Shown here: in pieces, positions 7,626 to 62,693 of the stretch
Numbering within the stretch: the first letter of the stretch is position 1
How the letters are laid out: each line of letters begins with the position of its first letter
DNA from: an uncultured Gammaproteobacteria bacterium
Lineage (GTDB): Bacteria > Pseudomonadota > Gammaproteobacteria > JABCZS01
Direction: 5' to 3'
Assembly (NCBI GenBank): GCA_964383495.1
Contig: CAYLHG010000003.1
Span: forward strand, 17,771 to 81,770
DNA: 64,000 nucleotides
Translations under genes and position numbers: made by a program
Notes under the pieces: model-generated
Databases searched by the model: none
What the model was told of the DNA's origin: nothing
The model's input: the letters and a program-made list of their open reading frames with translations, nothing else

Positions 7626-9902
7626 TCACTCACCCAATGGCTCAGCATGCCCACACGTCTTAATCGGACATACTTTTTCTTTCCCTTTGCGCTTGGTTTC
7701 TTTTTTTGTCATCATCAAGAAACCACATTTAGGACAAGGTTCATCCAAAGGTTCATTCCAAACAGCAAATTTACAGTCAGGATAACGGCTACACGAATAA
7801 AATATTTTTCCGTAACGCGATTTGCGCGACACCATATTTCCTTGGGAGCATTCGGGGCAACGCACCCCCGTATCAGCCGGTTTTTCTAACGGCTCAATGT
7901 GCTTGCAATCAGGATACCCCGTACATCCAATAAATTTACCAAAACGTCCATGACGAATTTGTAATTTTTTGCTGCAATCCGGACAGTCCCTATCTAAAAT
8001 TTCTGGTTGTGATGTTTCTTCTCCATCCATGCTGCGCGTGTAATCGCAATCAGGATAGGACACGCACCCAATAAACCGTCCGCGTCGACCTAAACGAATA
8101 GATAATTCTTTTCCACATTTAGGGCATTTTTCATCTAATTTTTCTTGCGTCACATCACTACGCTTCACATTTACTTCTGTATCATCTACTAACGTTTTAA
8201 ACGGTTGCCAGAAATTTTCTAACAAAGGCACCCATTGCGCTTCGCCGCGTGATACAGCATCTAATTGATCTTCCAAATGCGCTGTAAAATCATAATCGAC
8301 ATAATTTGTAAAATACTCTGTCAAAAATTTGTTGACGACTTTACCTACATCGGTAGGAATAAAACGTTTTTTATCCATTTCAACATATTCACGCGCTTGA
8401 AGTGTATGAATAATACTTGCATACGTAGAAGGGCGGCCAATACCGTGCTCCTCTAATGCTTTCACAAGGCTTGCTTCCGTATACGCAGGCGGAGGTTCTG
8501 TGAAATGTTGAATCGGCTCAATGCTTTTTAAAGAAACTATTTGTCCTTCGTGAAACTCAGGCAACATTTTTTCATCATCTTCGCCCGGTTTTTGATCATC
8601 CACACCTTCTTGATACACAGAAATAAAACCCGGATCAACAATTGTTGAACCCGTTGCACGAAATACATGCTGCTCATCTGCTGCTAAATCAACACCCACT
8701 GTATTAATGGTCGCATGAATCATTTGGCATGCAACAGCTCGCTTCCAAATTAATTGATACAGTTTAAATTGATCGGCAGATAAATGTGTCTTAATAGCTT
8801 CCGGCACATTTTCTACGTGCGTAGGGCGAATAGCTTCATGCGCTTCTTGTGCATTTTTTGATTTTGATTTATACACGCGCGGTTCATCGGGTAAATTTTT
8901 CTTTCCGTAGCGTGATTCAATAAATGCACGAATTTCTGCTACCGCTTCAGGTGCTAAATGCGTCGCATCAGTACGCATATACGTAATCAAACCTTCTACA
9001 CCATTTCCAACATCAACACCTTCATATAATTGTTGCGCAGTGCGCATGGTGCGTTGTGCTGTAAAGCCTAATTTCCGTGCTGCCTCTTGTTGCAATGTGG
9101 ATGTGATGAACGGCGCAGCGGGGTTTCTTTTACGTTGTTTTTTCTCTATATTTGTAACAGTTAATTTCCCTTGCGCTAATTTTTCTAGCTTTTGTTGCGC
9201 TTTTAATGCAGTTGCTTCATCAGTAATAGTAAATTGCTCAAACTTTTTTCCATCAAACAAAGTTAATCTGGCATCTACCTCTTGTCCATCTGGATGACAA
9301 TGCGCTTCAATACTCCAAAATTCTTGTGGCACGAAAGCATCAATCAATGCTTGTCGTTCAACGATCATTCGCAAAGCAGGGCTTTGCACACGTCCGGCCG
9401 ATAAACCGCGTCGAATTTTTTTCCATAACAATGGGGATAAATTAAAACCTACTAAATAATCTAACGCACGACGTGCTTGTTGCGAATGCACTAAATCCAT
9501 GGATAATTCGCGCGGGTGTGCAATGGCATCTAATACTGCATTTTTGGTAATTTGGTTGAACACGATACGATGTACGGCTTTACCTTTCAATGCATTATGC
9601 TCTTTTGCTACTTCATAAAGATGCCAAGAAATAGCTTCCCCTTCGCGGTCTGGGTCAGTGGCCAGTAGCAATTCATCTACATCTTTCAACGCTTTTAAAA
9701 AAGTGTCGACGTGCTTTTTATTTTTTTCGATTAATTCATAACGCATGGCAAAATCATGTTGCGGATCAACCGCGCCTTCTTTGGCTACTAAGTCACGAAT
9801 ATGGCCATAAGAAGCGATGACCTTGTAATCCTTCTTGCCCAGATATTTTTCCAAGGTTTTTGTTTTAGCTGGCGATTCAACGACAACGAGACGTTTAGTC
9901 AT
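7626..9902 (-). CDS. topA: DNA topoisomerase I
   Basis: Toprim N-terminus (VVVESPAKTKT), active-site region and three C-terminal C4 zinc ribbons (CPKCG, CPDCS, CPECS). Confidence 0.95.
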   Translation of the reverse strand: MTKRLVVVESPAKTKTLEKYLGKKDYKVIASYGHIRDLVAKEGAVDPQHDFAMRYELIEKNKKHVDTFLKALKDVDELLLATDPDREGEAISWHLYEVAKEHNALKGKAVHRIVFNQITKNAVLDAIAHPRELSMDLVHSQQARRALDYLVGFNLSPLLWKKIRRGLSAGRVQSPALRMIVERQALIDAFVPQEFWSIEAHCHPDGQEVDARLTLFDGKKFEQFTITDEATALKAQQKLEKLAQGKLTVTNIEKKQRKRNPAAPFITSTLQQEAARKLGFTAQRTMRTAQQLYEGVDVGNGVEGLITYMRTDATHLAPEAVAEIRAFIESRYGKKNLPDEPRVYKSKSKNAQEAHEAIRPTHVENVPEAIKTHLSADQFKLYQLIWKRAVACQMIHATINTVGVDLAADEQHVFRATGSTIVDPGFISVYQEGVDDQKPGEDDEKMLPEFHEGQIVSLKSIEPIQHFTEPPPAYTEASLVKALEEHGIGRPSTYASIIHTLQAREYVEMDKKRFIPTDVGKVVNKFLTEYFTNYVDYDFTAHLEDQLDAVSRGEAQWVPLLENFWQPFKTLVDDTEVNVKRSDVTQEKLDEKCPKCGKELSIRLGRRGRFIGCVSYPDCDYTRSMDGEETSQPEILDRDCPDCSKKLQIRHGRFGKFIGCTGYPDCKHIEPLEKPADTGVRCPECSQGNMVSRKSRYGKIFYSCSRYPDCKFAVWNEPLDEPCPKCGFLMMTKKETKRKGKEKVCPIKTCGHAEPLGE

Positions 9903-9977
9903 GGGGGTCCTTGTAAGTAAAATAGTGTGAGTGGGAATTTAGCTCAGATTTCAAAGAATGACAAGGGGGCGGAGGTC

Positions 9978-10022
9978 GGAAGACGGAAGAAACCTCTTTC
10001 TGTTCTCCGACTTCCGTCTTCC
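9978..10022. other. 12-bp-stem hairpin (GGAAGACGGAAG / CTTCCGTCTTCC, 21-nt loop) just downstream of smg
   Basis: Seen in sequence. No flanking T-run. Confidence 0.35.
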
Positions 10023-14540: not shown

Positions 14541-15995
14541 ATGCATTGGGCTGCTATTTTAAAAGTATTAGGATATTTACTCATGTGCTTAAGCATCAGC
14601 CACCTTCCACCGATGGCTATTGCGTGGTGGTATGATGAAGTAGCACTCTACCATCCTTTCTTGATGTCAGGCTTGGCAACATTATTTTCGGGCGTGACGT
14701 TATGGTTATTCACACGCAACACATGTGAAGAACCGCGTAAACGGGATGGTTTTTTAATCGTTGTATTATTTTGGGCTGTACTCAGCTTATTCGGCTCATT
14801 GCCATTTATTGTCACAGAAACACCCCATCTTTCTTTTACTGATGCGGTCTTTGAAACAATTTCAGGGCTCACAACCACAGGAGCAACAGTGATTCGTGGG
14901 CTTGATCAGCTACCCAAAGCATTATTATATTACCGGCAACAATTACATTTATTAGGTGGTATGGGAATCATCGTATTAGCAGTAGCAGTGCTACCCACAT
15001 TAGGCGTTGGAGGATTACAATTATTTCGTGCGGAAACGTCGGGCATGAATAAAGAAAGCAAGCTCACGCCTCGCGTTGCTGAAACCGCAAAAACGCTATG
15101 GTTCATTTATATTGGGTTGGTTATTGCATGTGCATTAAGTTATCGCTTAAATGGCATGTCTGGATTTGACGCCATTTGCTACGCTTTTTCAACTATTTCG
15201 ACAGGGGGGTTCGCTCCTCACGATAATAATTTTGCTTTTTATCCACAAACTTCTCTCAAGATATGGGCTTCTTTATTTATGTTTTTGGGTGGGTTAAATT
15301 TTTCATTACATTTTTTAGCATTAAGAAATACAAGTTTGATGAGTTATTGGAGAAATGCAGAATTTCGTTTCTTTCTCAAATTACAACTTGGGATTATTTT
15401 TATCGTATTTCTCATTTTACTATGGCAAAAAATCTATCCTCATGCCTTAGAGGCATTCGTAGACACGGTTTTCCATGTTATTTCAATTAGCACTACAACA
15501 GGGTTTGTCGCTTCAGATTTTAGTGTTTGGCCTATGTTTGTTCCAATATTGATCATTCTAGGAGGATTAATAGGCGGCTGTGCAGGCTCAACAGCGGGTG
15601 GTGTGAAAGCCCTGCGAATGCTGGTGGTGATCAAACAAGCTTCGCGAGAATTGCACCGATTGATTCATCCCAACGGAGAATATATTTTAAAAATTGATAA
15701 TAAAATGTTGCCTGATAAAGTGATTGATGCTGTTTGGGGATTTGTAGGTGTTTTTGGCGTATTATTTTGTTTGTTTTTGTTTATCTTAATGTCATGTGGG
15801 TTGGATTTTCTATCCGCTTTTGGTGCGGTGATTGCGAGCATTGCAAACGTTGGCCCAGGATTAGGTTCTGTATTTTGGGATTACGCAGATTTAAATAACA
15901 TTGCAAAGTGGACGCTTTCTTTTTCAATGCTAGTAGGACGTTTAGAAATTTTTGCTGTGATGGTGTTATTAATGCCGGCCTTTTGGAGGCAGTGA
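14541..15995 (+). CDS. trkH: Trk potassium transporter membrane subunit TrkH
   Basis: Polytopic TrkH/KtrB-family protein with GGxxN/TGF-type selectivity segments. Sits directly after trkA. Confidence 0.9.
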   Translation: MHWAAILKVLGYLLMCLSISHLPPMAIAWWYDEVALYHPFLMSGLATLFSGVTLWLFTRNTCEEPRKRDGFLIVVLFWAVLSLFGSLPFIVTETPHLSFTDAVFETISGLTTTGATVIRGLDQLPKALLYYRQQLHLLGGMGIIVLAVAVLPTLGVGGLQLFRAETSGMNKESKLTPRVAETAKTLWFIYIGLVIACALSYRLNGMSGFDAICYAFSTISTGGFAPHDNNFAFYPQTSLKIWASLFMFLGGLNFSLHFLALRNTSLMSYWRNAEFRFFLKLQLGIIFIVFLILLWQKIYPHALEAFVDTVFHVISISTTTGFVASDFSVWPMFVPILIILGGLIGGCAGSTAGGVKALRMLVVIKQASRELHRLIHPNGEYILKIDNKMLPDKVIDAVWGFVGVFGVLFCLFLFILMSCGLDFLSAFGAVIASIANVGPGLGSVFWDYADLNNIAKWTLSFSMLVGRLEIFAVMVLLMPAFWRQ

Positions 15996-34027: not shown

Positions 34028-35110
34028 ATGAGAACTCGCTTGCTACTGGCTAGCTTAGCCCTTTGGTGCTGTGCGCATACTGTGCTCGCCGCGTCTAAAT
34101 TGTACATCTACAATTGGTCTGAATATTTCGCGCCCAATACCCTCTCCCAGTTTGAAAAAGAAACGGGCACTGATGTTGTGTATGACGTTTATGATAGCAA
34201 TGACATGCTGGAAGCCAAGCTCTATTCCGGTAATACAGGGTATGATCTTGTGTTCCCAACTAATTTCCCTTATTTTTTCCGCCAGCAACACGCGGGCATT
34301 TATCGTCCGCTGGATATAACCAAGTTACCAAACCTGAAAGGTGCTGACCAGTCCCTTGTCAAACCGCTGATGAAGGATGGGAAGCTTTACGCTGTACCTT
34401 ATATGTGGGGTACATTCAGCATAGGGGTGAATGTGGATAAGGTGGCGCCTTTATTTGATGGCAAAATCCCTGATAGCTGGTCTTTAATTTTTGACCCCGA
34501 AAATATGAAAAAGCTTTCAGCTTGTAAAGTAGCCTTCGTAGATTCCCCCATGTATGTCTATCCAATTATCATGAATTATCTCGGTTTACCCCGTGATACC
34601 ACAGAGTATGCACAGTTTGAGAAAGCAACGGCTATTATGCGCAGTGTGCGGCCTTATGTCACTTATTTTCATGATTCCCAGTATTTGAATGACCTCGCTA
34701 ACGGCAATGTCTGTGTGGCCTTTGGCTGGTCGGGTGATTTGGTGCTGGCGCGTAACCGAGCAAAGGAATCTGGAAACAATGTGAATATTCAGGTAATCAA
34801 TCCTAAAGAAGGCTCCTTGTTATTGTATGATGTGATTGCAATGCCCAAGGATGCCAAGGACGTAGATGCAGGGTTACAATTTATGAACTTTCTCATGCGC
34901 CCTGAGGTAGCTGCGCAAATCACAAACCATGTTGGTTTTCCTAATGCCATTCCCAGTTCAACAACATTACTGGCGCCTGGGGTAGCCACTGATCCTGCTA
35001 TCTATCCACCAGAAGCTGCACGCCAAAAAATGTTCACGCCTAACGAACTCCCGCTTGCGCTTGAAAAACAATTGCACCGCGATTGGGCTAGAATGAAAAC
35101 GATTAGATAG
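34028..35110 (+). CDS. potF: Periplasmic putrescine-binding protein (PotF-like)
   Basis: LYIYNWSEYFAPNTLSQFEKETGTDVVYDVYDSNDMLEAKL aligns closely to the E. coli PotF N-terminus. Signal peptide present. Confidence 0.85.
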   Translation: MRTRLLLASLALWCCAHTVLAASKLYIYNWSEYFAPNTLSQFEKETGTDVVYDVYDSNDMLEAKLYSGNTGYDLVFPTNFPYFFRQQHAGIYRPLDITKLPNLKGADQSLVKPLMKDGKLYAVPYMWGTFSIGVNVDKVAPLFDGKIPDSWSLIFDPENMKKLSACKVAFVDSPMYVYPIIMNYLGLPRDTTEYAQFEKATAIMRSVRPYVTYFHDSQYLNDLANGNVCVAFGWSGDLVLARNRAKESGNNVNIQVINPKEGSLLLYDVIAMPKDAKDVDAGLQFMNFLMRPEVAAQITNHVGFPNAIPSSTTLLAPGVATDPAIYPPEAARQKMFTPNELPLALEKQLHRDWARMKTIR

Positions 35111-51905: not shown

Positions 51906-54383
<2,478 letters not shown>

Positions 54384-54786
54384 CTACCATTTTTTGCCTC
54401 AAAAGGGGAAAAGTGATTACGAAAAGAGGTGAATATCAACACTTAACTAACTTATGCTCTAGAGGGCAAGGGATACATATGCAAGGCATTTTAACGACAC
54501 TTCGACAAAGGGAGTATGGAAAAAATCAAGCTTTAAAGAAGTCTTGAAGCAAAGGAAATTATTGATACGTTTTTAAGTAAACATGAGCCCCTTTTTTTCG
54601 ATCATTACTCAATCGGGCGAATCTTAACAACAAATTGAAGCAAATGACTATAAAGGGCGCGTAAAAGTCCTTTCTCAAGCATTGACAGAGCGAATAGCAT
54701 TCATAGAGCCTTCCATGCCGCCCCTACACTACAAGAAATGATACCCAGCATACCGCAAAGATCAAGAGGACCGAAGTAAGCAAGGA

Positions 54787-54802
54787 TGTTCCACGTGGAA
54801 CA
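54787..54802. promoter_or_regulatory. parS-like palindrome TGTTCCACGTGGAACA (perfect 16-mer)
   Basis: 15/16 match to the Bacillus-type parS TGTTCCACGTGAAACA. Symmetric. Confidence 0.6.
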
Positions 54803-54944
54803 ATGAAAGAAAAGCAGAAAGCTAGGGTAGATCGCACAAAAAAACCCCCGATTCCCTGCGCGAATCTGCCCCGCCCGGATCAAATCTGGGCCAAGCTAAA
54901 AAGGAACAGCACATGCTTAACTATAAAAAGCATTTTTTAGAAAA

Positions 54945-55130
54945 TTGAGAAACAATCAAACTGCTGCAGAAAAATTACTGTGGCGTTTTTTAGGAAAAAA
55001 ACAAAGCTTAAACACAAGTTTCACCCGTCCAAAGCCCATAGGGCCTTTTATTGTGGATTTTTATGCAAAATCTGCAAATTTAATCATTGAATTTGATGGC
55101 GGCCAACATTACGATAAATGTGAGCGCTAA
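54945..55130 (+). pseudogene. Truncated DUF559 (Vsr-like endonuclease-domain) gene remnant
   Basis: 61 aa: AAEKLLWRFL...FTRPKPIGPFIVDFYAKSANLIIEFDGGQHYD matches the DUF559 core, then stops. Confidence 0.55.
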
Positions 55131-55298
55131 TAGATAAAAATAGAGATTCGTATTTTGCGCTTTTAGTTTATCCGTATTGCGATTTAATAATTTGAAGGTT
55201 TTGTTTAGCACAGAGCCGGGGTAGCGGATGATAAGATAGCAGGCAAGCCATATTCGCGTAAGGATGGGAGTTTATTGAGCTTTAGTGAGGCGGCGAAT

Positions 55299-55314
55299 GT
55301 TCCACGTGGAACCA
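55299..55314. promoter_or_regulatory. parS-like palindrome TGTTCCACGTGGAACc
   Basis: One terminal mismatch to the local consensus. Confidence 0.55.
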
Positions 55315-55568
55315 TGAGGAAAATCGATGGGCTGGAGAGCAGATCATGCAAGAAACCTCTCGATTCGTGGAGTTTATTCCCCCGCGAAAGCGGAAACCGA
55401 CCACCCCGTCAGCATCAAGTCCAGAGCAATGCCTAGATCAAATCCGGGCCAAGCTTTTAGAGGGTAGGTGAGCAGCACAGCTGCGAAGCGGGATTCTCAT
55501 GTCACAGAGGACAAGAAAAGAGATCTAATGTCCCGTAAAGATCGATGGGGCCAAGGTAAGGATCGCAT

Positions 55569-55584
55569 GTTCCACGTGGAACTA
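55569..55584. promoter_or_regulatory. parS-like palindrome TGTTCCACGTGGAACt
   Basis: One terminal mismatch. Confidence 0.55.
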
Positions 55585-55759
55585 CAAGGAGAGCAGTGAA
55601 GCAAGTATCTTGTGCAAGAAAACCTCGTCTCATGCTCCGCGCCCGCCTGCCTCTTAAAAGGGGGCTATTAGCAATGTTATTGGTGAAACACTCCCGATTC
55701 GCGGAGTTTATTCCATGCGCAAGCACAATATGCGGGGGTTTTCTTCCTGCGTAATCATC

Positions 55760-56836
55760 TTAAACAACCGTAACCGCTCCATGTTCCACGTGGAACACCG
55801 CACGCTCACGCTCACCACCAAGATCTATTTTCTCTACGCTCGTTAAACAAATTTGGGCATCTAATATAGACAAACGCTCATTTAATAAAGCTCGCGCACC
55901 TTTATCTAGCTCAGAGGGCAGGTCATCTATCAATAATGTTGGACGTTTTCCTGTCTGCTCTATCATCCAGGATACTTGCGCCAATTGTAAGCCTGTTACA
56001 AATGTTTTTTGTTGCCCAGTAGACAACACTTGCGCAGCAGGTTTTTCGTTTACTTTGATTTTCAAATCAGCACGATGTGGGCCCGCGTGTGTGAACCCTA
56101 AAAACATATCCCGCTCAGAAGAAGCCAGCAAAGCCTCCTCTAGGCTTGTCCCTTTTGTCCAGCCCGGCTCATAGAGTAGTCTCAAATCAGAGACACCAGG
56201 CAGCCCTTCTAACGCAATTAAAAAAGAAGGTAAGCAGACATCTAAAATGGAGCAACGTATTTCATGTAACTTTTGGCCTGCTGCAGCTAATAAACTTGTC
56301 CATAAAGACAAATCAGAACGCGCACCTCCAGAAGCACGCAATGCTGCATTGCGTTGTTTCAATAAACGATGGTACTCTCGCCAAACCGCATGGAAAGAAG
56401 GTTCCACGTGGAACATTAACCAATCCAGCCATCGACGCCGCTCTTCAGGAGGATCAGCAAGCAGTTGGTAACCCTCCAAGTTGAGAATTTGAACCGGAAG
56501 CAGTTGTGCAAGTGCAGCAATAGAACCAGCAGGTTCATCATTAATGAGGTAACTATATTTCTCATGTGCATTTTTAATGCACTTCAGTGTGCAAACCAGA
56601 CCATCGTCCAATAGCACCCGAGCACCGATTTGACACGTTTTTTTTCCATGAGAGATCGCTGTAGACAGCTGGGAAGCACGAAATGATTTGCCCGTACCTA
56701 ATATATAGATGCTTTCAAGAATAGAGCTTTTTCCAGCCCCGTTGTCACCGTAAAAATAATTAAGCCCAGGGGAGAGGGTGATGCACTCAGAAGATAAATT
56801 GCGTATATGGTTGCACTGTAAGACTTCAAGCGTCAT
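55760..56836 (-). CDS. recF: DNA replication and repair protein RecF
   Basis: Walker A GDNGAGKSS, signature and Walker B regions. C-terminus VFHVEHG resembles E. coli MFTVEKG. Confidence 0.95.
   Translation of the reverse strand: MTLEVLQCNHIRNLSSECITLSPGLNYFYGDNGAGKSSILESIYILGTGKSFRASQLSTAISHGKKTCQIGARVLLDDGLVCTLKCIKNAHEKYSYLINDEPAGSIAALAQLLPVQILNLEGYQLLADPPEERRRWLDWLMFHVEPSFHAVWREYHRLLKQRNAALRASGGARSDLSLWTSLLAAAGQKLHEIRCSILDVCLPSFLIALEGLPGVSDLRLLYEPGWTKGTSLEEALLASSERDMFLGFTHAGPHRADLKIKVNEKPAAQVLSTGQQKTFVTGLQLAQVSWMIEQTGKRPTLLIDDLPSELDKGARALLNERLSILDAQICLTSVEKIDLGGERERAVFHVEHGAVTVV
55782..55797. promoter_or_regulatory. parS-like palindrome TGTTCCACGTGGAACA (perfect), inside the last codons of recF (encodes VFHVEH)
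   Basis: Seen in sequence. Confidence 0.6.
56400..56415. promoter_or_regulatory. parS-like palindrome gGTTCCACGTGGAACA inside recF coding (encodes MFHVEP)
   Basis: Seen in sequence. Confidence 0.55.
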
Positions 56837-56916: not shown

Positions 56917-58029
56917 TCACAGTCTCAACGGCATTACCACATGAAAATGAGTCATGCCTGGCAAAGGCTCCCCTGAAATCACTGCAGAACAACTGGGATC
57001 AATCAGCTTTAGACACACGTTTCCTGGCGGCAAGGTGTTCAACACGTCCAATAAATACCCTGCGTTAAAACCAATTTCGAAAGGATTTCCTTGATAAGGC
57101 AAATGTATCGCCGCCTCGGCTTCTTCTTGTTCGGGGTTGTTTGCAACAATTCGAAGCAAATCGCCGCTTAATAGCAGACGAACGCCGCGATTCTTCTCAT
57201 TTGATAATGTTGCGGCTCTCATTAACCCTTGTTTTAAAGTGTCCCGATCTAACCCAAGCTCCATGGTGGCAGGAGGGGGAAGGACGCGCTTATAATCTGG
57301 GAAGCGTCCCTCTATTAGTTTTGTGATAAATTCGTGTCGATCTGACGTGATTTTGAGGGTATTGTCGTCGATTTGCACCCCAACAAGATCCATTGTATCA
57401 TTTAGTAATGATAATAATTCTGTTACCGCCTTGCGAGGGACAATCACATGGACGGGAGGGTCTGCAGGAAAAAGAGGGGTAGCGTATTCATTGACCGCAA
57501 GTCTGTGCCCATCTGTGGCGATCATCCTTAAAATTCCTCGATCTGTCTCGAACAGCATCCCATTTAGATAGTAACGGGAATCGTTATTTGCCATGGCAAA
57601 TCGTGTGGCCATCATCATCTGGCGCAATATGCTCTGAGGAAACTTTGCAGAGATTTTCGCTGAATTTCTTTGAATAGCAGGGAAATCCGCGGCAGGGAGG
57701 GTTGCTAGGACAAAGCGCGCACGACCGCTACGCAAAATGAGCCTTTCTCCTTCTAATTTGCAATGAATATCGTCGTTCTCCGCCAAACTTCTGCAAATAT
57801 CTAAAATTTTTCTTGCGGGAGCAGTGACCTCTCCAGAGGTGAATTGTCCTTCAAGCGCATCCTTTACCATTAGCTCAACTTCAAGATCGGAGGCGTTCAA
57901 CGAAATTTGTGAATTTTCAACACAGATCAACACGTTTGACAGTATCGGCATATGTTGTTTTTTTTCAGCCACCCCCGACACCTGCTGAACCAACTTAAGC
58001 AACTTCTCGCATTTTATTGTAAATTCCAT
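56917..58029 (-). CDS. dnaN: DNA polymerase III beta sliding clamp
   Basis: Three-domain beta clamp with MEFTIKCEKLLK N-terminus. Confidence 0.97.
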   Translation of the reverse strand: MEFTIKCEKLLKLVQQVSGVAEKKQHMPILSNVLICVENSQISLNASDLEVELMVKDALEGQFTSGEVTAPARKILDICRSLAENDDIHCKLEGERLILRSGRARFVLATLPAADFPAIQRNSAKISAKFPQSILRQMMMATRFAMANNDSRYYLNGMLFETDRGILRMIATDGHRLAVNEYATPLFPADPPVHVIVPRKAVTELLSLLNDTMDLVGVQIDDNTLKITSDRHEFITKLIEGRFPDYKRVLPPPATMELGLDRDTLKQGLMRAATLSNEKNRGVRLLLSGDLLRIVANNPEQEEAEAAIHLPYQGNPFEIGFNAGYLLDVLNTLPPGNVCLKLIDPSCSAVISGEPLPGMTHFHVVMPLRL

Positions 58030-58062: not shown

Positions 58063-59427
58063 TTAAGAAGACAAGATTCGTACCAAATCTGTCCAATCTT
58101 CCTGAATTTGCCCATCAGATTCCAACATTGCTTTAATAGTACGGCAGGCATGCAATACGGTAGTATGGTCGCGACCACCAAATGCATCACCCACTTCTGG
58201 CAAGCTATGATTTGTTAACTCTTTTGCCAGCGCCATCGCCAACTGTCGAGGGCGAGCCACAGAGCGAGAACGACGCTTCGATAGCAAATCAGCCACTTTA
58301 ATGTTGAAATACTCAGCCACTGTTTTTTGGATATTTTCAATCGTAACAAGCTTGTCTTGCAAAGCTAACAAGTCCTTCAAAGATTCTTTCACAAATTCGA
58401 TAGTAATTTCTTTCCCTGTAAAACGCGCATTCGCCATGACTCGTTTTAAGGCGCCTTCTAATTCACGCACGTTGGCACGCACCCGTTTTGCAATAAAGAA
58501 GGCGACATCGTAAGATAACTCAAGCCCCATTGCTTGGGATTTGCTCATTAAAATAGCTACTCGCGTTTCCAACTCTGGCGGCTCTACAGCCACCGTCAAC
58601 CCCCAGCCAAAGCGTGATTTTAAACGCTCTTCTAATCCTGTGATTTCTTTAGGGTAACGATCACTGGCAATCACTAATTGTTGGCGCCCCTCAAGTAACG
58701 CATTCAATGTATGAAATAACTCTTCTTGTGAGCGCTCTTTACCAGCAAAAAATTGAATATCATCCACCATCAAGACGTTGCGCGAACGATAAAAATCTTT
58801 GAACTCCCCGATTTGGTTATTTTGTAAGGCTTTCACCATGTCCGCCACAAAGCGCTCTGAGTGCCTATACAATATTTTTGCCTGAGGATCACGTTCTAAT
58901 ATCATATTACCAATAGCGTGCATCAAATGCGTTTTCCCAAGGCCTACGCCTCCATAGATGAAAAGCGGGTTGTACACTGTGCCCGGGTTTTCAGCAACCT
59001 GTATTGCCGCGGCCCGCCCCAGCTGGTTAGATTTGCCTTCTACGAAATTTTCAAACGTAAATTCTTTGTTAAGATTATCTGCAGATGAGAACGTCATGGC
59101 ATTCGTTTTAGTAGGAACAACCTTTGTTGTAATAAAAGAAGCCGCAGGCTCTGCAGAAATCGCGGCCATTCCATTCGATTTTCTTCCCATTTTCAACACA
59201 ACATCAGGAGGGTTCGTCGGACAAAACTGTTGCATCCACGCTTTTATCATAACGAGATAGTTATCTTCCACGTACCCGCAAATAAAACGGTTAGGCGCAA
59301 ACAGACAAAGCCCTTCTTCGAGCATTTCTGCTTGCAACGGAAAAATCCACGTATGATAATCAGTTGGTGTAAGCTTGTCTTCTAAGAACTGTAAGCACTG
59401 ATGCCACAGAGACAGTGTGCCAGACAT
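58063..59427 (-). CDS. dnaA: Chromosomal replication initiator DnaA
   Basis: AAA+ Walker [11 protein letters not shown], sensor motifs, C-terminal DnaA-box-binding HTH (HTTVLHA). Confidence 0.97.
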
Positions 59428-59511
59428 TGGCCCCTCCCATGCCCAAAACGATATTCAGTATACCTTGTTTTGAAGTACTGTTGTTGATCTCTACGCACCA
59501 AGAATGCCATA

Positions 59512-60687
59512 ATGTCTACTTTTTTGGAGCCCTCACTCATGAAGCCTGCCTCTTATTTCACCACGGGACTTGGTTTGTTTGCGATGTTTTTTGGAGCAGG
59601 CAACGTCGTGTTCCCATTATTTGTGGGTATGAAAGCAGGCACTGGGTTAATCCCTGCCATTACCGGGCTCTTACTCACAGCAGTTGCTTTACCCATGGCA
59701 GCGGTACTTGCAATGGTAGAGTATCGCGGTGAACAAAAAGCATATTTTGCGCGTGCAGGGAAATGGGGCGGCGCACTTTTATTATTACTCTGCCTGTTTT
59801 TATTAGGGCCTTTTTTGGTTGTGCCTAGAACAGTATCTGTTGCACACTCTGCCATTTCTCAAACAATTATTCCTGTTTCACCGGAAGTATTCGGGTTAGG
59901 GTATTGCATTTTGATTGCCATTTTATCGCTCAACACGAATACCATGTTGCGGCTAATGGGTCAATTTTTCACGCCATTAATGCTGATTTTATTAGGATGG
60001 ATTATTGCAGCAGGCATTTTCACTCCCGCAACAAATACGATCGCATTAGACCACGCCGAAGGATTTTCCTTTGGATTAAAAGAGGGATATTTCACACTCG
60101 ATGCCATTGCAGCATTGGTGTTTGGACAATTTATTTATGTACAATTACGGCATCAAAGTAAAGATTTATCGCACACACATTTTAAAAAGCACGTGATACA
60201 AGCATCTTGCGTTGCAGGCTTATTATTAAGCTTGGTATATATTGGTCTTGCGTACATCAGCCACAAACAAGCAGACGCGAGCATGCTGTCATTAGATTTA
60301 AAACAAGCGTTATTAATTTTGTTGAGCGCAAAAATGTTGCCGGAAAAATTTATTGGTGTTGCAGGTATTATTATTGCTTCGGCGTGCATTACCACAGCAT
60401 GTGCATTGTCTAAAATTTTCGCGGATTATTTGCATCATTTTGTGAGGCATTACACGCGCAAAATCTCAGATACACATTGTTTATTATTTACCATTGCCAT
60501 TGCATACGGCATGAGCTTGCTAGGTTTTAACGAATTAATGGCGTATTTTTCACCTGTTATTATTGCATGTTATCCCGTTTTTATTTTGCTCACAGTGCAT
60601 GCGTTTGTGAAAGACAAAGTGAATACAAGATGGATGCCTTTTGGCGTTATCATTTGCTTAGCGCTTGGTGTGGCAGGATTAATATAA
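59512..60687 (+). CDS. Branched-chain amino acid transport system II carrier-like permease (LIVCS/BrnQ family)
   Basis: N-terminal FGAGNVVFPLFVGMKAG matches the BrnQ FGAGNxxFPPxxG signature. 12 TM. Confidence 0.65.
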   Translation: MSTFLEPSLMKPASYFTTGLGLFAMFFGAGNVVFPLFVGMKAGTGLIPAITGLLLTAVALPMAAVLAMVEYRGEQKAYFARAGKWGGALLLLLCLFLLGPFLVVPRTVSVAHSAISQTIIPVSPEVFGLGYCILIAILSLNTNTMLRLMGQFFTPLMLILLGWIIAAGIFTPATNTIALDHAEGFSFGLKEGYFTLDAIAALVFGQFIYVQLRHQSKDLSHTHFKKHVIQASCVAGLLLSLVYIGLAYISHKQADASMLSLDLKQALLILLSAKMLPEKFIGVAGIIIASACITTACALSKIFADYLHHFVRHYTRKISDTHCLLFTIAIAYGMSLLGFNELMAYFSPVIIACYPVFILLTVHAFVKDKVNTRWMPFGVIICLALGVAGLI

Positions 60688-60716: not shown

Positions 60717-61796
60717 TTATGGAATGGGGCACCCTGCCCGTTTCCCTTGAAACAACGATACCTCTTTCATAAGCTGCTCAAAATGAGAAGAGGTATCTTT
60801 GATGCAAATGAAATTAAGATCTTGTTGTTCCGATAGCAGGCCACTTAACCCCGACAGGCTTCTAGTAAATGAGTTTACTTGGTCTTGGGGGATACACAAA
60901 TCTTTTAAAGATGAAAACAGCGCAGTTTGCTCATCTTTAGGAAGCACCACAAATAATAAATCCTCGTGCATAAAAACTTTATTCACATGAAAATCTTTTA
61001 CATTTAGCATTTCTTTTAATGTGTGTTCAATCAGCAAAGAAGAAGGCGTACGATACGAACCACCCACTTTATGAGTGCTTCCTTCGCTGCTTATCTTAAA
61101 TGCAACAACCTCATTCGACAGCTCCTTACAATTGAACTGATGGAAATTAGGAGTCATGCGACCATGCGGTGAAATAAAACCTGCAGTGTGACAAAGATCG
61201 CCTAATTTTTCTATAACCTTAATTCGATTATCTCCAGAAATCTTAATGCCTAACGTTAACACAGGCGTCTCTGTCCCTGCACCAGATATATCCGGCGCAA
61301 AAGAAAATGAACATCCACTATCCTTTAGAACAGTTGCACAATACTCTCGTAATGTTAGCAGCATGAGGTTAGTTTCAAAAAACAGATCATCAAACCTTGC
61401 CGAGTCAAAGTGCCTTTTAATGGCTTCAGCGCTCACCAACATTTCTGCTGCATTTCGCGCAACGGTTGTTGAGGCGCTGGGGACAGGCGCATGCAGCTCA
61501 CTCATTTTACAACTGCTAAACAACACTTGAGCCAAATCATGCCCCAAGAAGTATGGCTCATTACCGGCGCTCCCTACCTTTTGCAAGAAGGTTGCATGAA
61601 GCTCTGACAAGCCTCCCCGGTAAACCTCGGGTAGAAAAGGCTCCGACGTAGAAGGCCACTGAATTTGGACCATACAATGGTCTTTTTGTTCGTTTTCGAT
61701 AATCAAGACCTTGACGGAATTTTTTAATGATTTAACTTGATTAATCTTATGAATAAACTCATTGATTTCTTTCTTTAGCTCTATCAACGTTGGCAT
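60717..61796 (-). CDS. Hypothetical 360-aa protein adjacent to oriC
   Basis: Start set at MPTLIELKK (ATG 61796 with GGGGGG RBS). No recognisable motifs. Confidence 0.5.
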   Translation of the reverse strand: MPTLIELKKEINEFIHKINQVKSLKNSVKVLIIENEQKDHCMVQIQWPSTSEPFLPEVYRGGLSELHATFLQKVGSAGNEPYFLGHDLAQVLFSSCKMSELHAPVPSASTTVARNAAEMLVSAEAIKRHFDSARFDDLFFETNLMLLTLREYCATVLKDSGCSFSFAPDISGAGTETPVLTLGIKISGDNRIKVIEKLGDLCHTAGFISPHGRMTPNFHQFNCKELSNEVVAFKISSEGSTHKVGGSYRTPSSLLIEHTLKEMLNVKDFHVNKVFMHEDLLFVVLPKDEQTALFSSLKDLCIPQDQVNSFTRSLSGLSGLLSEQQDLNFICIKDTSSHFEQLMKEVSLFQGKRAGCPIP

Positions 61797-61911
61797 ATTA
61801 CCCCCCTGAAAACAAACTAACCAATCTTTTGTGCATATTATCACAGCCCAGCTATAGCTTATTAAGCTTTTGAATAACTTAGCAAGTTGTTGTAAAGTAC
61901 CCTGTGTGGGC

Positions 61912-62394
61912 TGTGGATAACAACAGGTCACGCCTTGTTTATATCGAGATAAGTAGAGTTATCCACATCTTACCCCAATTAGCCCCCAAAAGAGTGATCG
62001 GTTTCTCCACAATTAAAACCGTTTTAATCTGTTGAAACATAACAAAAAAATAAACTTATCCACACAATATGCGATCCCTTATAGTAATAATATTTCTTTA
62101 TATACATATATAATATTATTGTAAATGAGCGCATACAACCCTTTTAGAACCCGAAGACATTGTCTAGCAAAAAATGGTCAGTCGAAAAATGAACGCAGTA
62201 TTTGTGTAGACAATCCATGGAACAAAATTGTTAAGTAACGAGTTATTAGATGTGCATAACCCGCCCATATTTTCCTGCCCAAGAAAACACCCACACTTAT
62301 CCACAAATGCCGATATGGCTACACCCCCTATTACCCACATCAAAGCATCGGCCTCAACTAATTAATATTAAAAGCATTAAATGGCTTATCCACA
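61912..62394. other. Putative oriC: DnaA-box cluster plus AT-rich unwinding element
   Basis: TGTGGATAA at 61912. TTATCCACA at 61959, 62056, 62297 and 62386. TTcTCCACA at 62003. AT-rich tract ~62085-62125 (tagtaataatatttctttatatacatatataatattattg). Confidence 0.7.
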
Positions 62395-62543
62395 GAAAAT
62401 GCGAAAGCTTATAAATATCATAAAGTTCTTCATATAAAATACTTAAATATATTAATCCCTGTGAAAAATCCTCAAAAAAGGCTAGCAAATCAGGAAAAGA
62501 TTCGTTAGAATGAGCACCTCAAGTTTTTAAACAGGTGTTACTC

Positions 62544-62693
62544 ATGAAAAGAACCTACCAACCTAAAAAGAAAAGACGGGCGAAAACCCATGGCTTTCGT
62601 GCACGCATGAAAACCAAAGGCGGCCGCAAGGTAATAGCTGCTCGCCGTGCTAAAGGACGTCATCGTTTGGCGCCCACCGCTTCTCGCGCGTAA
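62544..62693 (+). CDS. rpmH: 50S ribosomal protein L34
   Basis: [42 protein letters not shown]... Below the ORF-track size cutoff. Confidence 0.9.

Follow-up and report, generated by a model that had tools for sequence, protein, structure and literature searches.

Where does chromosome replication begin when the cluster of DnaA boxes that would mark an origin lies upstream of rpmH, and dnaA itself stands apart from it behind two other genes? This arrangement is found in the 64,000-nucleotide (64-kb) stretch of DNA from an uncultured gammaproteobacterium analysed here in its entirety (henceforth the window), for which an earlier note had proposed the cluster as an oriC candidate and had read the two genes as a sign of insertion or rearrangement. 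The 747-bp intergenic spacer at 61797–62543 can be predicted with considerable confidence to be an active DnaA-dependent chromosomal origin, and it is very probably an ordinary one that has been parted from dnaA by two inserted genes. The prediction draws on direct observations of the boxes, the geometry of an unwinding module, duplex instability, conservation, synteny and a local change in skew. The proposed candidacy is borne out in that nine boxes, a module of box, 13-bp spacer and DnaA-trios, a DNA unwinding element (DUE), a phylogenetic footprint and a switch in gene orientation and skew all coincide at this spacer.

The spacer (35% GC, and 747 bp by measurement where about 750 bp had been given) lies between divergent rpmH and dnaA blocks. 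On its left, dnaA (58063–59427, matched by the Pfam DnaA profile) is followed on the same minus strand by dnaN (56917–58029), recF (55760–56836) and gyrB (51906–54329); on its right, rpmH (62544–62693, plus strand; L34, PF00468, E 3e-22) is the first gene of an rpmH-rnpA-yidD-yidC series, with rnpA, yidD and the start of yidC all following on the plus strand, and RnpA and YidD confirmed by Pfam. Between dnaA and the spacer stand a BrnQ-like permease gene and a hypothetical gene, as had been claimed, and these separate dnaA from the origin by 2.37 kb, leaving the latter bounded by rpmH and the hypothetical gene. The permease gene, brnQ (59512–60687, plus strand; the NCBI call of 382 aa starts at 59539), encodes a product that matches Pfam PF05525 (E 2e-60, 205 bits, cutoff 22) and scores 207 bits against the NCBIfam equivalog TIGR00796, under its cutoff of 243; by its Pfam profile it is a member of the LIVCS/BrnQ family of branched-chain amino acid:cation symporters, an assignment that does not imply a substrate. 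The second gene (60717–61796, minus strand) is an ORFan of 359 aa, which found only itself in 5.8e9 proteins and 1.84e9 cluster representatives and no family in Pfam, NCBIfam or PADLOC; its GC of 0.413 equals that of the genome, and a single-sequence AlphaFold model (pLDDT 44) is unusable. Nothing unusual was seen in the composition of either gene (GC 0.41 vs 0.42), no target-site duplication or flanking repeats were found around them, and Rfam and tRNA scans of the 64-kb window found no RNA genes. In the dnaA block, a 16-bp perfect palindrome, TGTTCCACGTGGAACA, occurs five times in the window, where 0 are expected, and always within 54786–56415: three copies sit alongside other short repeats in the gyrB-recF spacer, which is unusually long (1.43 kb vs about 50–430 bp in relatives), and two lie within recF, where they code for FHVEH and FHVEP. 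These look like a small dispersed or tandem repeat element.

Judged by its DnaA identities, the source organism would belong to a Legionellales-related, Legionella-like lineage with a small genome. Its nearest DnaA relatives are metagenome sequences at 85–95% identity, with a next set at 70–73%, a MAG labelled Legionellales bacterium at 67%, and Legionella and Aquicella at 63–66%. The close clade comprises L084 (95%, on a 1.58-Mb contig), L085 and L086 (both 85%) and L087 (86%); in all of these rpmH is followed by a spacer of 690–754 bp and, beyond it, by brnQ and dnaA. One homologous spacer lies at about 1,139,839–1,140,528 on contig_29360 of ERZ25039540 (1.58 Mb). What lies between brnQ and the origin differs from genome to genome: in the window the slot is taken by the ORFan, in L084 by an AAA_14/DUF4143 ATPase gene, and in L085–L087 by no gene at all. 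Two further points concern L084 7150–8358 and 9619–11011: the ATPase family of the slot has more copies nearby in L084, L085 and L090, and the dnaA of L084 is called as two ORFs (129 + 336 aa), reflecting a frameshift or an assembly error. The best named homologues of the permease outside the close clade come from Chlamydiales (Protochlamydia, Parachlamydiaceae) and Babeliales at 33–36% identity, a distribution that hints at an amoeba-associated lifestyle. The window spacer aligns with those of L084, L085 and L087, and across these four spacers most boxes have 67–89% invariant columns, as against 14% in the remainder of the spacer.

The window DnaA and its E. coli counterpart share 63% identity, and since domain IV is near-identical between them, the E. 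coli box consensus is applicable here. The perfect box TTATCCACA occurs seven times in the 64-kb window, and none of 100 shuffles reached that number. Chance clustering was rejected as an explanation, because five of these seven fall within the 483 bp of 61912–62394 and the expectation is 0.63 for the entire 64 kb. The two isolated perfect boxes, at 15239–15247 (in the ORF 14541–15995) and 34432–34440 (in the ORF 34028–35110), have no neighbouring boxes. Six boxes had been noted in the spacer, five perfect and one variant; all six are present, but three had been missed (62205, 62251 and 62331), and the total is nine, five perfect and four weaker. The outermost on the dnaA side is a perfect box on the minus strand (61912–61920, TGTGGATAA on the plus strand), whose position in the alignment is only loosely conserved. 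Three plus-strand boxes follow: a perfect one at 61959–61967 (7/9 columns invariant in the four genomes), the one-mismatch TTCTCCACA at 62003–62011 (TTTTCCACA in relatives; 8/9 invariant, and preceded by a conserved AGAGTGATCGG), and a perfect R1-like box at 62056–62064 (8/9 invariant) that heads the unwinding module. Beyond these lie two minus-strand boxes, the degenerate TTGTCTACA at 62205–62213 (two mismatches; a perfect TGTGGATAA in L084, L085 and L087) and TTATGCACA at 62251–62259 (one mismatch, conserved only in L084). The series ends on the plus strand with a perfect box at 62297–62305 (8/9 invariant), TTACCCACA at 62331–62339 (one mismatch, 7/9 invariant) and a perfect box at 62386–62394 that heads a second, rpmH-proximal module. 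A pattern of one minus-strand and three plus-strand boxes (−,+,+,+) is repeated in both halves of the spacer, with spacings of 47/44/53 and 46/34/55 bp. The window spacer has five perfect boxes, as against one to three in L084, L085 and L087, where the orthologous sites are mostly TTATGCACA or TTATACACA.

The R1-like box is followed by a 13-bp spacer, CAATATGCGATCC (62065–62077, plus strand; GGGCAGTGCGATC in E. coli), and then by seven in-phase DnaA-trio triplets at 62078–62098, which read NAN on the minus strand and CTT ATA GTA ATA ATA TTT CTT on the plus strand. In a nearest-neighbour scan of duplex stability over the whole 64 kb with 45-bp windows, the least stable duplex is at 62080–62125, a stretch of about 90% A+T starting 16 bp past the box, which is proposed as the DUE. 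The first 23 bp of this trio and DUE segment have 18/23 invariant columns (78%) in the window, L084, L085 and L087. To recognise a basal unwinding system, the criteria published in PMC8287927 ask for a box with at most two mismatches, a spacer of 0–16 bp (13 being the commonest) and at least three NAN trios. Module 1, i.e., box 62056 with its 13-bp spacer and seven triplets, falls within these limits, though runs of.T. triplets are fairly likely in DNA of 90% A+T. The likeness to that system extends over a perfect box, a 13-bp spacer, seven consecutive NAN triplets and then AT-rich DNA, whereas the window differs in that its one strong box stands alone where a tandem pair is common, and in that the first positions of its trios are mostly T/C where the 3'-GAT-5' consensus has G/A. 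When metagenomes were scanned with the conserved trio core, 78 matches came back, none adjoining a DnaA box, and the lone candidate, L119, is unrelated. An IHF-consensus-like site, TTTCAACAGATTA (62025–62037, minus strand; one mismatch to WATCAANNNNTTR), lies between two boxes as a weak candidate, which is not significant alone because the spacer holds eight such one-mismatch sites. GATC is not enriched (2 in 747 bp vs a window mean of 3.5 per kb), which gives no sign of Dam/SeqA-type sequestration.

A single AT-rich tract had been described; it is real, but the spacer has two box and AT-rich modules. The second tract, at 62409–62454, is the second least stable 45-mer, with two in-phase trios and 47% invariant columns; it represents either a duplicated unwinding element or the upstream element of the rpmH promoter. 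The putative rpmH promoter is placed at 62483–62511 on the plus strand (−35-like TAGCAA; −10 TAGAAT at 62506–62511), with GCTAGAATG conserved in L085 and L087; it is offered as putative because a consensus promoter scan, which did no better than shuffles, missed it. Across the wider group of relatives, a box and AT-rich module is likewise retained next to the rpmH promoter. With many high-affinity boxes in the spacer, and with box 62386 and the second tract just upstream of the putative promoter, the spacer might be seen as a locus for titrating or recharging DnaA (datA-like or DARS-like), or as nothing but a promoter region through which DnaA controls rpmH and the ORFan; in L091, too, the equivalent module lies about 120 bp upstream of an inserted gene co-directional with rpmH. 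Such loci are not expected to carry a module of box, 13-bp spacer, trios and DUE, which is here both present and conserved. Moreover, the ortholog of the spacer in two relatives from the wider group, L173 (73% DnaA identity) and L088 (70%), is the full rpmH-dnaA origin interval, an uninterrupted 715–790 bp between rpmH and dnaA that contains both an orthologous module 1 and a second module. A role confined to titration or promoter control is hence highly improbable, and the reading of the spacer as an origin is retained. In L088, a called 158-aa "gene" between rpmH and dnaA (9444–9920) overlaps five DnaA boxes and the AT-rich module, and is probably a spurious call on the origin.

The duplication within the spacer raises a further question, namely whether both modules (62056–62125 and 62386–62454) are functional unwinding sites that together form a tandem double origin. 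The segment 62385–62422 is a 38-nt repeat of 62055–62092 with 76% identity, and both modules share the (−,+,+,+) pattern. Module 1 is recognisable in L173, L088, L090 and L091, and both modules recur in L085, L088, L090 and L091; in L088 and L090 it is the rpmH-proximal module that has the better trio run (four at 13-bp spacing). In the window, on the other hand, module 2 has just the two in-phase trios and the lower conservation, and it is placed as an upstream element of the rpmH promoter would be, making a double origin here unlikely. The relatives give the idea a broader form. In L090 (72% DnaA identity; 8684–10000) a PAP2-family gene lies between the two modules, and in Legionella quinlivanii (L004 8590–10000) a small ORF does so; these sequences indicate that the origin interval is split there by a gene other than dnaA, and the separation suggests that the modules work independently. 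In L091 (67% DnaA identity) two genes lie between module 2 and rpmH. Insertions are found, then, between dnaA and module 1 in the window clade, between the modules in L090 and L. quinlivanii, and between module 2 and rpmH in L091. It may be proposed, with a correspondingly low degree of belief, that the origin of the group consists of two tandem, co-oriented modules of box, spacer and AT-rich DNA that are able to act independently, with the interval serving as a recurrent landing site for genes. A parallel might be struck with Helicobacter pylori, for which PMC8235120 describes a split (bipartite) origin, oriC1-dnaA-oriC2: the likeness is that a gene separates two box and AT-rich modules in L090 and L. 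quinlivanii, and the difference is that in the relatives the separating gene is not dnaA and in the window the boxes are all in one spacer.

How did the origin come to be parted from dnaA? Among 80 gammaproteobacterial dnaA loci, rpmH lies directly upstream of dnaA in 71 and brnQ in none. An alignment across the breakpoint shows that the dnaA-proximal DNA, with its RBS and a TATACT −10-like element, is common to all, and that the homology of the window clade to relatives with the canonical order ends just upstream of these. In the window they are retained in the dnaA-brnQ spacer (59428–59538, to the NCBI start of brnQ; TATACT at 59457–59462, minus strand), which has no DnaA box even when two mismatches are allowed, in keeping with the earlier claim of a short, box-free spacer upstream of dnaA. 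L088, L090 and L173 have a DnaA box 66–74 bp before the dnaA start codon, at a position taken up in the window clade by the promoter region of brnQ; box-mediated autoregulation of dnaA would thereby have been lost in this clade. In the L088 genome brnQ is found elsewhere, between glnA and an SSF transporter gene, which makes it a native gene of the group that has changed place in the clade of the window; as neither of these neighbours is present in the window, the donor locus is untraceable. The idea of an insertion or rearrangement is supported by the unbroken interval of relatives at 70–73% DnaA identity and by brnQ in the close clade, but it needs to be amended as to timing: by the distribution among these sequences, brnQ between the origin and dnaA is an old, clade-wide feature restricted to the close clade, and only the 359-aa gene is specific to the window genome. 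The history might therefore be pictured as beginning with an unbroken rpmH-oriC-dnaA interval, in which a brnQ cassette would have been placed immediately upstream of the dnaA −10 element in the clade ancestor; with this step dnaA would have been cut off from the entire origin and its promoter would have lost its DnaA box, and the genome-specific 359-aa gene would later have entered the slot between brnQ and the origin.

Skew and gene orientation bear on whether replication in fact starts at the spacer. To its left, the minus strand carries 64% of coding bases, and the plus-strand GC skew of this arm is +0.007 in plus-strand genes and −0.120 in minus-strand genes, with a replication-associated component of about −0.06. 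The coding-strand skew of the right arm, +0.106, is like that of leading-strand genes of the left arm (0.120) and unlike that of its lagging-strand genes (0.007), and among 1457-bp segments on the left none has a skew as high as that on the right. A sign change of the skew is likewise seen at the homologous spacer of five relatives (L084, L085, L087, L088 and L091), though not at that of L090, and its size in the relatives is small (−0.03 to −0.06 vs +0.04 to +0.07). Local skew is confounded with gene orientation, and the DNA on the rpmH side extends over just 1.5–9 kb (1.46 kb in the window); within these bounds, skew and orientation are consistent with an origin at the spacer. As for other sites, an origin in the dnaA-dnaN gap was rejected, as this gap is just 33 bp, and in relatives at most 15 bp separate mnmG from mnmE, which directly precedes it. 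Without an upstream spacer at mnmG, neither of the other common gammaproteobacterial origin sites is available in the DNA examined.

These data have to be weighed against the prospect that the spacer is a relic, i.e., an inactive copy of the ancestral rpmH-dnaA origin whose boxes have been kept for regulating rpmH or its neighbours while replication starts elsewhere. The detachment of the origin from dnaA lends itself to such a reading, and origins do move in this order: Aquicella lusitana (L093, LR699114.1, 2085897–2107264), a cultured member of the Legionellales, has polA and a DUF4383 gene upstream of dnaA in place of rpmH, and no DnaA box (at most one mismatch) in the DNA upstream of dnaA, so that its origin must lie elsewhere. 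In Coxiella burnetii, an ARS next to rpmH-rnpA, attributed to Suhan and colleagues in 1994, is said to have two consensus boxes and reportedly showed no initiation intermediates. In Halomonadaceae, some rpmH-dnaA spacers with boxes and without a DUE have been read as non-functional, with a second origin at mnmG, in a prediction study (bioRxiv 10.1101/2025.08.05.668638). By analogy with these cases, box clusters near rpmH or dnaA may not always be active origins. In the window, however, it is not the boxes alone that are strongly conserved, as the DUE and trio segment is too (78% invariant); five perfect boxes as against one to three in relatives give no sign of decay; the DNA examined offers no alternative at dnaA-dnaN or upstream of mnmG; and skew and gene orientation switch at this very spacer. 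A relic is accordingly very unlikely, and an active origin remains the preferred reading.

Viewed against characterised origins, the window locus shares features with several. In E. coli, oriC lies between mnmG (gidA) and mioC, apart from dnaA. The window resembles it in this physical separation, in the near-identical domain IV of DnaA, and at the R1-DUE junction, where the geometry agrees and so does some of the sequence; the junction reads TTATCCACA-GGGCAGTGCGATC-CTAATAAGAG in E. coli and TTATCCACA-CAATATGCGATCC-CTTATAGTAA in the window, with TGCGATCC common to both. It differs in its location away from mnmG-mioC, in the want of GATC enrichment and of 13-mer GATCT repeats, and in having boxes on both sides of the DUE. 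The Coxiella ARS, compared by description only, would resemble it as another Legionellales-group locus in which boxes and AT-rich repeats reportedly lie upstream of rpmH without adjoining dnaA, and would differ in its two consensus boxes and in having had no detectable initiation intermediates. There is also a likeness in layout to the Pseudomonas-type oriC1, whose place is between rpmH and dnaA (Yee & Smith 1990, cited by bioRxiv 10.1101/2025.08.05.668638): an origin next to rpmH, divergent rpmH and dnaA-dnaN-recF-gyrB blocks, multiple consensus boxes, and an R1-type box beside trios and a DUE are common to both. Its exact unbroken arrangement is found in L173 and L088; the window departs from it in that dnaA does not bound the origin, brnQ and the ORFan lying in between, and in that the box of the dnaA promoter has been lost.

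If the spacer works in the manner of these systems, DnaA would occupy boxes 61959, 62003 and 62056, all three in the same orientation; starting at the last, R1-like box, it would oligomerise across the 13-bp spacer onto the seven trio triplets (62078–62098), and would then melt the AT-rich element at 62080–62125. Unwinding would accordingly be favoured at module 1 over module 2, and on firing of the origin one fork would run to the left across dnaA-dnaN-recF-gyrB and the other to the right across rpmH-rnpA-yidD-yidC.

That an origin may lie apart from dnaA is no new finding, E. coli being one example. Rearrangements at rpmH-dnaA origins have likewise been described before (bioRxiv 10.1101/2025.08.05.668638), and the current understanding of bacterial replication initiation is left unchanged. 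What is gained is a well-supported origin call for an uncultured Legionellales-like lineage, at a locus where a prediction method looking for oriC beside dnaA would go astray; it may be of use in orienting genomes, in estimating growth rates from metagenome coverage and in building shuttle vectors. Should both modules fire, or substitute for each other, the group would naturally possess a tandem double origin, with the insertions as natural experiments that set its parts apart, and the dnaA of the window clade would, in addition, do without box-mediated autoregulation. The conserved tandem modules and the three insertion points are the sole parts that might repay experiments. An origin interval broken at three different points in related lineages, together with the loss of the dnaA box, may be seen as a modest set of natural experiments on which parts of an origin must stay together and on whether autoregulation of dnaA is dispensable.
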